A stretch of 64,000 bases of DNA from Escherichia coli (GTDB taxonomy: Bacteria > Pseudomonadota > Gammaproteobacteria > Enterobacterales > Enterobacteriaceae): the NCBI RefSeq assembly GCF_003018115.1, contig NZ_CP027457.1; one strand, given 5' to 3'. Made by a program: the position numbers and the translations under genes. Of this stretch, positions 20,692-21,162 are shown one piece after another. The first letter of the stretch is position 1. Every line of letters starts with the position of its first letter. The notes below the pieces were generated by a model. The model worked only from the letters and a program-made list of their open reading frames with translations, ran no database searches and had not been told where the DNA came from.

Positions 20692-20725
20692 AAAAAAACC
20701 GCAGGACCGGTTTCCCGGCCTGCGG
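20692..20725 (-). terminator. intrinsic terminator downstream of hok-like gene
   Basis: Minus-strand ccgcaggccgggaaaccggtcctgcgg hairpin followed by TTTTTTT. Confidence 0.7.
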
Positions 20726-20823
20726 TAAAATTTGTGATTTATTGATGTTAAAAAGGTGCCATCCGGCTGATCACCCTCAGCAACCGGTCGGCGGGGAAGG
20801 TACACTCCCCCCCCCACGGTTTC

Positions 20824-20964
20824 TTACCGCTTACACTGTAAGAACGCCGCAATCTCCGCGCCCGCTATCCGGAACCGGAACTCGCACAGTGAACTGTGGG
20901 TGATCCAGATAATGAGCACTACCGTGATACAAATCACGGTGGTTTTTAACGGTTTTTGCGACAT
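20824..20964 (-). CDS. Hok/Gef-family type I toxin-like small membrane protein
   Basis: Unlisted 46-aa ORF MSQKPLKTTVICITVVLIIWITHSSLCEFRFRIAGAEIAAFLQCKR with SD aaaaggag 9 nt upstream; matches Hok pattern (TM helix, SLCE, EIAAFL.CK). Confidence 0.65.
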   Translation of the reverse strand: MSQKPLKTTVICITVVLIIWITHSSLCEFRFRIAGAEIAAFLQCKR

Positions 20965-21040
20965 AACGCTTGCTCCTTTTACGGAGAGGCGCTAACCTTC
21001 TTCTTGCTGAAGGAAGAACGTCAGGCCTCGGGTTAAACAT
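20831..21040 (-). CDS. mok-like overlapping reading frame (putative)
   Basis: Frame overlapping almost all of hok-like ORF, beginning upstream, as in hok/mok/sok loci; internal ATG of listed ORF 20831..21109. Confidence 0.3.
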   Translation of the reverse strand: MFNPRPDVLPSARRRLAPLRKRSKRYVAKTVKNHRDLYHGSAHYLDHPQFTVRVPVPDSGRGDCGVLTV

Positions 21041-21162
21041 GAATGTTTTGTCCGGGGCCTTTTCACATCCGGCCTTCAGGTGTTCCCTCCGGCCATCAGC
21101 CAAAGGCACCCGCGCATACTGTACGGTTTTTGTCTCCTTCCGGCAATCCCGGGGCGCGATGT

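Follow-up and report, generated by a model that had tools for sequence, protein, structure and literature searches.

Prophages are enriched in hok genes (bioRxiv 10.1101/2025.08.07.668861, 2026 preprint), and 14 Hok/Gef genes have been counted in Escherichia coli O157 Sakai (Fozo et al. 2010, PMC2887945). Toxicity was found for 42 of the 45 Hok homologues tested in the preprint, the only non-toxic ones being 19_179, 60_1482 and 69_1540 (bioRxiv 10.1101/2025.08.07.668861). The gene described here is identical, both in its peptide and in the DNA of its open reading frame, to one of the sequences of that study, 79_1563, which belongs to a high-abundance cluster and is carried by plasmid LRP163 (Escalera-Maurer et al., bioRxiv 10.1101/2025.08.07.668861, Table S2). 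Since 79_1563 is not among the three constructs named as non-toxic, it is toxic according to the text of the preprint, and there is no protein-level difference between cluster 79 (79_1563; WP_000078853.1) and our gene. The locus is thus already annotated, catalogued and toxicity-tested, and we regard it as ordinary because RefSeq annotates the gene and because the exact peptide has been catalogued and assayed. The preprint deliberately left aside Sok, Mok, the fold of the mRNA and the position between J and stf, and these details are added here. The conserved absence of mok and the hypervariability of the segment targeted by Sok may be new.

The hokW-sokW pair of the Stx2 phage Sp5 / 933W is an experimentally proven type I toxin-antitoxin system, in which HokW was shown to be toxic and is neutralised by an antisense RNA (Takada et al. 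2021, PMC8621323) and which promotes lysis and phage release on induction (PMC8621323). Like hokW-sokW, the locus studied here is in all likelihood a prophage-borne type I system of the hok/sok type found in lambdoid phages of Shiga toxin-producing E. coli (STEC). However, HokW is a HokD-like peptide of 51 aa (MKQQKAM...) that belongs to another Hok cluster and shares 42% identity with our peptide over 33 aa, and on VT2-Sakai hokW is located at about 57.8 kb and our gene's relative at about 44.7 kb, after lom. Identity with the published hokW-sokW was rejected, the two being separate loci of different Hok clusters in the same phage type. Our search of the literature on mokW and on hok together with lom and Stx found nothing further.

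The nearest relatives outside cluster 79 are the lom-adjacent Hok proteins of 933W-type Stx phages (cluster 72; 'MokW-like host killing' in RefSeq, e.g. gp72 of P13374), which are 63% identical to our peptide over all 46 aa and whose leader, sokT, antisense promoter and fbi align with ours at the nucleotide level. Two representatives of this cluster, 72_1589 and 72_1621, have also been cloned (bioRxiv 10.1101/2025.08.07.668861). In short-tailed phages the members of cluster 72 follow lom, and in P2-like prophages they follow gpD/ogr. They differ from our locus in the Sok-tail/target segment and, in P13374, by the absence of a terminator past fbi. The original prediction had compared the position of our gene with the slot in which lambda carries lom, a remark that was apt because in 933W-type Stx phages the cluster 72 sister immediately follows lom.

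The stretch of E. coli DNA that we analysed (the window) is 64,000 nucleotides long. In agreement with the placement first proposed, with J on one side and the side tail fibre gene on the other, the hok gene is preceded by a J-like tail-tip ORF of 1245 aa (21163-24900, minus strand) and followed by a tail fibre ORF of 570 aa with collagen-like repeats (18966-20678, minus strand). The three are oriented alike and our terminator scan found no terminator between the stop of J (21163) and hok, so late transcripts must enter hok. A region of 511 nucleotides is 100% identical in E. coli O178:H19 strain 2012C-4431, where PGAP annotates WP_000078853.1 as 'Hok/Gef family protein' between the phage tail tip and prophage tail fibre genes. 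In phage lambda, the prophage expresses the morons lom and bor, accessory genes that lie in the late region beside the tail genes and that each have a promoter and a terminator to themselves, and we take the position between J and stf to be the same as the lambda moron slot. The products of lom and bor are outer-membrane proteins unrelated to the toxin, and these genes are without antisense control. A moron typically has its own promoter and terminator, lies between conserved phage genes and is wanting in related phages; our locus agrees with this pattern, having its own promoter and its own terminator and recurring in other prophage contexts. It very probably represents a self-contained type I toxin-antitoxin cassette of the hok/sok type, about 395-455 bp in length, carried as a moron by a lambdoid STEC-type prophage, in which J and the side tail fibre gene flank it.

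When 5426 complete genomes of E. coli were searched, 141 contained a match to the region; the copy number had a median of two and reached five at most. At least 80% of the 511-nt query was covered in 118 complete genomes, and the best match was at least 95% identical in 83. The homologue set, obtained by a pattern scan of IMG/VR and four protein look-ups, contained 59 distinct units with identities of 58% to 100%. Alignment showed that a unit of about 360 nt is shared by 59 distinct prophage loci of Escherichia, Salmonella, Serratia and Yersinia, that the coding-type conservation of hok spans these four genera and that the conserved unit extends from the -35 of the hok promoter to fbi (about 395 bp). 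Among 120 IMG/VR loci, J was upstream of hok in 10, nine of which had stf downstream, and lom was upstream in 13, while the remainder were in other contexts, e.g. P2-like prophages in which hok follows gpD/ogr; in 63 cases of this set the predicted prophage contig terminated directly past hok. The cassette is thus found in at least four prophage contexts (past J, past lom, past gpD/ogr and at the ends of prophages).

The hok ORF (20824-20964, stop included, minus strand) was taken from a program-made ORF list and encodes a Hok/Gef toxin of 46 aa, MSQKPLKTTVICITVVLIIWITHSSLCEFRFRIAGAEIAAFLQCKR. The assignment of this ORF to the Hok/Gef family, which had been proposed from its architecture, was borne out by Pfam PF01848 (HOK_GEF), to which residues 10-44 aligned on positions 8-42 of the 42-position model with an i-E value of 2.5e-11 and 43.4 bits. 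The NCBIfam models NF007279 (Hok family toxin) and NF007290 (HokA) gave 37.0 and 38.2 bits, respectively, both with E of about 1e-9; these models are built on other Hok clusters and their curated whole-protein cut-offs, 73 and 89, were not reached, yet PGAP still gives the protein its Hok/Gef family name. Across 1264 Hok peptides, seven residues show a conservation above 80%, namely M1, C16, T18, L30, C31, E32 and E41 (bioRxiv 10.1101/2025.08.07.668861). All seven are present in our peptide, as M1, C12, T14, L26, C27, E28 and E37, with a constant offset of four, and the same register is found in the alignment of the preprint, which includes sequence 1563 (bioRxiv 10.1101/2025.08.07.668861). 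A search of protein databases returned 48 relatives from E. coli, Salmonella, Serratia and Yersinia, which are named Hok/Gef (nearly all of them) or carry PF01848. Many database versions of the peptide are truncated or frame-shifted (P0012-P0048; P0046 is shifted into the -1 frame).

The strong Shine-Dalgarno sequence that had been noted for this ORF was found again as AAGGAG (20973-20978, minus strand), 8 nt before the AUG; the SD predicted for the same ORF in the preprint is 'GGAGC' (bioRxiv 10.1101/2025.08.07.668861, Table S2). A CUCC anti-SD (20984-20981, minus strand) lies just upstream and forms a CUCC...GGAG hairpin with it in folds of the full-length mRNA. Judged from its sequence, the 46-codon gene is a genuine gene for a Hok-family membrane toxin with RNA control elements of the hok/sok type. 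It is the only hok copy that tblastn with nine Hok proteins detected in the 64-kb window. A weak HokC match at 15861-15995 (E=0.059) was dismissed, being antisense within aspS.

The predicted promoter of hok (21118-21146, minus strand) consists of a -35 TTGCCG (21146-21141), a spacer of 17 nt and a -10 TACAGT (21123-21118). Comparison of 31 distinct upstream contexts showed that the -10 TA.A.T and the -35 TTG are kept at a constant distance from the 5' GGGUGCC while their surroundings differ, and we predict from this constant distance that hok transcription starts at G21111. A generic promoter scan of positions 20500-21400 called nothing, the hok promoter having 8 of 12 consensus matches against a threshold of 9 of 12; this promoter and the Sok-like promoter presented below both rest on comparative evidence. 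The predicted full-length hok mRNA is 419 nt long (20693-21111, minus strand), its 5' end being placed by Rfam model RF01794 and by the promoter geometry, and its 3' end by the terminator. The span originally proposed for the locus, 20692-21110, is nearly equal to this transcript (21111 to 20693). RF01794 matched over its full length (1-157) at 21111-20953 of the minus strand, with 50.3 bits and E=3.1e-10, which is below the gathering score of 59. On the R1-type plasmid used as a control it matched the hok strand with 87.2 bits, so the model, named 'sok', describes the hok leader and not Sok itself.

The terminator that had been described as strong is an intrinsic terminator (20692-20726, minus strand; -24.3 kcal/mol, z=-5.68) with seven U residues, found by scan and fold, 14 nt upstream of the start codon of the tail fibre gene. 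It is common to the window and phage 1720a-02 and is not found in homologues of other contexts, whose conservation ends at fbi. Past the hok stop, the 3' UTR forms a hairpin (20782-20821, minus strand; -24.4 kcal/mol) that contains a run of nine G residues (20807-20815).

Folding of the 419-nt mRNA gave a minimum free energy (MFE) of -190.4 kcal/mol, in which nt 1-17 are paired to nt 340-358. The 5' partner of this pairing is a tac-like element, GGGUGCCUUUGGCUGAU (21095-21111, minus strand), which pairs with 20772-20754 in the full-length MFE structure, and its 3' partner is a fbi-like element, AUCAGCCGGAUGGCACCU (20754-20772, minus strand), whose GGCAC is invariant inside an otherwise variable 3' UTR. 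In the window the tac/fbi duplex has a free energy of -35.9 kcal/mol (z=-5.4), and the pairing was held in 32 of 33 distinct combinations of 5' and 3' ends, with energies of -24 to -36 kcal/mol and z values of -2.7 to -6.3. A second end-pairing helix shows compensating changes, e.g. GGCUGAU/AUCAGCC versus CGAC/GUCG. When the 3' end is removed, the tac element is predicted to pair instead with AAAAGGCCCC (21063-21054), forming an alternative 5' hairpin (tac-ucb) of -29.3 kcal/mol (z=-3.4). Helices 1-2 of the 5' hairpin were 90% to 96% paired in the 59 sequences, against 37% to 59% in slid controls over the whole structure, and helix 6, of the 3' UTR hairpin, was 78% paired with five pairs altered on both sides. 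Column-wise covariation in the MAFFT alignment lent modest support, above that of the controls, to the 5' hairpin, sokT and the 3' hairpin, with 80% of cells paired against 37% to 59% in the slid controls and 14 two-sided changes against 9.1 expected. One homologue, L134, has lost the 5' element.

A hairpin that resembles the sokT target (GAGGCC...GCGCCUC, loop CUUCAGCAA) is located at 20986-21029 of the minus strand and has a free energy of -22.0 kcal/mol (z=-5.0). It was present in 27 of 27 distinct variants, with a covarying inner stem and, in 23 of them, a YUNR motif in the loop of the MFE structure, and it corresponds to the matching stem of RF01794. A sok-like antisense RNA had been expected on the plus strand around 21000-21100, together with a promoter and a terminator. 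We found a candidate promoter (20970-20998, plus strand), with a -35 TTGCTC (20970-20975), a spacer of 17 nt and a -10 TAACCT (20993-20998), and a conserved 3' hairpin followed by a short U-tract. The -10 was invariant in 43 of 43 distinct variants, while the -35 was TTGCTC, TTGACT, TTGTCT or TTTACT and the spacer was 17 nt (18 in one variant). By consensus this promoter is weak (6 of 12 matches) and it was not called by the generic scan. The antisense -10 falls in the 3' half of the sokT outer stem; this half is invariant and the half with which it pairs is not, which suggests that a second constraint acts on the segment holding the -10.

Comparison and folding predict that this promoter directs a Sok-like antisense RNA of about 60 nt, encoded at about 21006-21065 of the plus strand and starting near G21006. 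The predicted RNA has a single-stranded 5' tail of 17 nt (21006-21022), complementary to the sokT loop and 5' arm, followed by a hairpin (21024-21059) and UUUU (21060-21063), and its fold has a free energy of -21.6 kcal/mol (z=-2.75). Per-sequence folding was used for the 3' hairpin because one-base indels blur column-wise covariation in the MAFFT alignment; it showed that the hairpin is formed in 29 of 29 variants, with energies of -15 to -24 kcal/mol and z values of -4.4 to -7.7. The hairpin is followed by UUUU, UUUC or UUCGUCUUUC, the U-tract being short throughout (UUUU in the window, UUU or UU in many relatives). A longer antisense RNA that would cross the hok ribosome-binding site was rejected, since no acceptable -10 follows at 16-18 nt from its candidate -35 (TTGCGA, 20956-61).

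The layout of these elements is that of hok/mok/sok (parB) of plasmid R1. Both loci encode a Hok/Gef toxin (39% identity over 33 aa) behind a leader co-linear with RF01794 (in ours below the gathering score), and both have the pairing of the 5' and 3' ends, an alternative 5' hairpin and a target hairpin with the antisense -10 (predicted in ours) in its 3' arm. The antisense promoters share the form TTGCxC-17-TAxCCT, the R1-type antisense strand reading TTGCGC-17-TATCCT, and in both cases a hairpin of the leader is complementary to the 3' hairpin of Sok. Unlike R1, our locus has a peptide of 46 aa instead of 52, an antisense -35 that shares positions with the hok SD, where that of R1 is just upstream, and a 30-nt A/U-rich spacer between fbi and the terminator; it is located in a prophage tail module and not on a plasmid. 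It also differs from R1 in having no mok frame, whereas the R1-type control has a -1-frame ATG at nt 111 of the mRNA.

The original prediction had described a mok-like frame that overlaps hok almost fully. Such a frame is indeed open in the window (20831-21109, minus strand), with 92 codons from a GTG or 69 from the ATG at 21040, but it is not conserved and is probably not a gene. No conserved start with an open frame into hok was found in any frame across the 59 homologues. In frame 0, a stop is located 6-27 nt ahead of the hok AUG in 59 of 59 sequences, with no start codon between. The -1 frame is closed by a leader stop and has no start in most variants, among them L002 and L114, which are 94% to 97% identical to the window, and in the +1 frame no start was found in the 59 homologues. 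The ATG at 21040 of the window is replaced by CTG, ACG or TTG in most homologues. The same script detected both positive controls, the annotated mokC of K-12, which is in frame with hok and 57 nt upstream, and, on the R1-type plasmid, the ATG in the -1 frame. We therefore rejected the mok-like frame as a gene. It appears to be an accident specific to the variant in the window, and this branch of Hok is mok-less as far as sequence can tell. A short leader ORF that looked plausible in the majority consensus (AUG UGG AAA ... to the invariant UAG of GGUUAGCG) was also rejected: its second codon is a stop in the window (AUG UGA), and the AUG itself is missing from the forms of Salmonella and Yersinia.

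In the absence of a conserved mok, any link between the binding of Sok and the translation of hok must be independent of mok, through decay or through a switch in RNA structure. A mok-independent switch at the SD was modelled by comparing the full-length mRNA, the 3'-trimmed mRNA and a trimmed mRNA whose Sok target is blocked. The median probability that the SD and AUG are unpaired was 0.11 for the full-length mRNA, 0.13 for the trimmed mRNA and 0.08 for the Sok-bound mRNA, an effect that is negligible and that we do not take as evidence for an SD switch. Its direction was as expected, the trimmed form being more open than the full-length form in 44 of 58 sequences and the Sok-bound form less open than the trimmed form in 53 of 58.

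Variability was highest in two places, the segment predicted as Sok tail and target (21023-21007) and the second end-pairing helix. Eight close relatives showed about 126 differences, 51 of which fell in alignment columns 91-120 (30 columns). Comparison of the window with its 94% identical relative in phage 1720a-02 showed that 8 of the first 20 nucleotides of the predicted Sok RNA differ, and in the single pair of co-resident copies that was compared (L088 and L089, from one genome) the target segments differ as well. We tentatively propose, as a reading to which we give rather less than even chances, that clusters 79 and 72 form a naturally mok-less branch of hok/sok in which a Sok-tail/target segment of about 25 nt serves as a fast-evolving 'address' between cassettes that reside in the same STEC genome. 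Such an address would stop several cassettes in one STEC genome from neutralising each other. In a mok-less branch Sok might exert its control without a leader ORF, via RNase III-dependent decay; alternatively, the opening of the sokT hairpin by Sok might free the GCCUCUCC anti-SD.

The R1 paradigm suggests how a cassette of this kind would work, although its mechanism is not transferable in full because mok is absent. The full-length mRNA would be locked by the pairing of its ends, and would thus be untranslated and closed to the antisense RNA. Slow trimming from the 3' end would strip the fbi element, after which the 5' end would refold onto AAAAGGCCCC and the sokT hairpin would form and present its loop. 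A short and unstable Sok-like RNA, made constitutively from the TTGCTC-17-TAACCT promoter, would pair with the loop and stem of sokT and inactivate the mRNA, probably through cleavage by RNase III, decay being the default expectation from R1. If the supply of Sok stopped, Hok would be made and inserted in the inner membrane, and the cell would be killed or lysed. The supply could stop upon loss of the prophage, upon shut-off of transcription by an infecting phage or upon induction of the prophage. Candidate roles for the cassette would be the retention of the prophage, the exclusion of other phages or help in lysis, as shown for hokW-sokW.

An improbable alternative is that hok is an orphan toxin expressed only in the late J-to-stf transcript, where it would act as an accessory factor of lysis or as a holin-like one, and that the Sok features are by-products of the structure of the mRNA. 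The common orientation of J, hok and stf, with no terminator ahead of hok and late transcripts that must run into it, is what one would expect of such a gene, as is the help that hokW-sokW gives to lysis and phage release on induction (PMC8621323). The weakness of the antisense promoter by consensus and the short U-tract point in the same direction, and the location of the antisense -10 inside a conserved hairpin could explain its invariance. However, hok's own promoter is conserved in unrelated contexts, including P2-like and prophage-end sites outside late operons, the -35 to -10 spacing of the antisense promoter is constant (17 nt, 18 once), the stem half that holds its -10 is more constrained than its partner, and the layout is co-linear with the sok promoter of R1. 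Moreover, given the toxicity reported in the preprint (bioRxiv 10.1101/2025.08.07.668861), one would expect an unopposed hok gene under a promoter of its own to kill the lysogen.

It is even less probable that the locus is an inactive relic, decaying as several chromosomal copies of K-12 have and carried along as a passive passenger of the prophage. The many truncated or frame-shifted versions of the peptide in databases, the loss of the 5' element in L134 and the unusual run of nine G residues in the 3' UTR hairpin of the window would fit such decay. Against it, the ORF is intact and its peptide is the very one reported as toxic (bioRxiv 10.1101/2025.08.07.668861), the promoter, tac, fbi, sokT, SD and antisense promoter are intact and agree with the consensus of the family, and 118 complete genomes have a copy that covers at least 80% of the query, with a best match at least 95% identical in 83 genomes. 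That the ORF is a chance Hok-like frame in an intergenic spacer has a negligible probability. Short hydrophobic ORFs such as this one, of 46 aa, are easily over-read and the curated NCBIfam cut-offs were not reached, but the Pfam match, the 48 relatives named Hok/Gef or carrying PF01848, and the coding-type conservation over four genera have already refuted this explanation, and RefSeq annotates the gene. We therefore retain the self-contained hok/sok-type cassette as the best explanation of the locus.

As a discovery this locus carries little weight, prophage Hok toxins being well documented, and its practical value lies in annotation. RefSeq marks only the CDS, to which the predicted antisense RNA, mRNA boundaries, tac and fbi elements, sokT hairpin and two promoters can now be added, while the tempting 'mok' ORF should stay unannotated. 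If the absence of mok and the hypervariability of the target hold experimentally, these cassettes would offer a compact natural system in which to ask how toxin silencing by a Sok-type RNA works when translation is not coupled and how several co-resident type I toxin-antitoxin copies are kept orthogonal. Such cassettes may influence the retention of prophages and the timing of lysis in Shiga toxin-producing E. coli.

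The hok gene, which encodes a 46-aa Hok/Gef toxin (20824..20964, minus strand), is flanked by two tail genes. The side tail fibre ORF (18966-20678, minus strand) was named 'prophage tail fiber N-terminal domain-containing protein' by PGAP, and in its product a conserved N-terminal domain is followed by an extended stretch of Gly-X-Y repeats of the collagen-like type, located at approximately residues 135-330. The J-like ORF on the other side of hok (21163..24900; 3738 nt) is uninterrupted and comprises 1245 codons with a TTG start, while the J-like gene located beside the identical hok of strain 2012C-4431 (L001:6514-10117, minus strand) is annotated as frameshifted. 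Strain W24 likewise carries identical hok DNA.

Comparison of the leader reading frames showed that the mok frame is variable even among the classical loci. The locus of an R1-type IncFII plasmid (L004:540-760, plus strand) has an upstream ATG in frame with hok, and its leader is one base shorter than that of comparison locus L137. The mokC gene of K-12 (L136) is annotated in frame with hokC, and the two share a common stop.

A run of nine guanines is present on the minus strand at positions 20807-20815, inside the hairpin of the hok 3' UTR, where close relatives carry GGCGGGGG. This G9 run may be prone to slippage, or may be an artefact of the assembly. Folding of the hairpin is retained with the run in place.

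Several other RNA features of the window were matched by Rfam models. The STnc100 sRNA (RF02076; 47427-47641, minus strand) gave a strong, full-length match of 160 bits versus a gathering score of 47, and lies within the prophage, as do three tRNA genes in tandem (49050-49298, minus strand; 72.5, 70.1 and 54.8 bits). Such a tandem trio is the typical layout of Stx-type lambdoid phages. The DicF antisense RNA (RF00039; 60148-60199, plus strand) was also matched over its full length, with 62 bits versus a gathering score of 48, close to the far end of the window, and a naRNA4/CssrE element, a REP-type nucleoid-associated RNA (RF02564; 10013-10088, minus strand; 67 bits), is located in the host portion.

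The hok cassette is often the very end of the prophage among the IMG/VR loci with a homologous cassette (L016-L135). The predicted viral contig stops no more than about 30 nt past the hok stop codon in 63 of these 120 loci, and the programs that predict prophage boundaries evidently have a tendency to place their cut at the cassette. A homologous cassette is also located at a prophage end in Salmonella (L005:3613-4224, minus strand), where it adjoins a hicA/hicB type II toxin-antitoxin pair, so that two toxin-antitoxin systems lie side by side.
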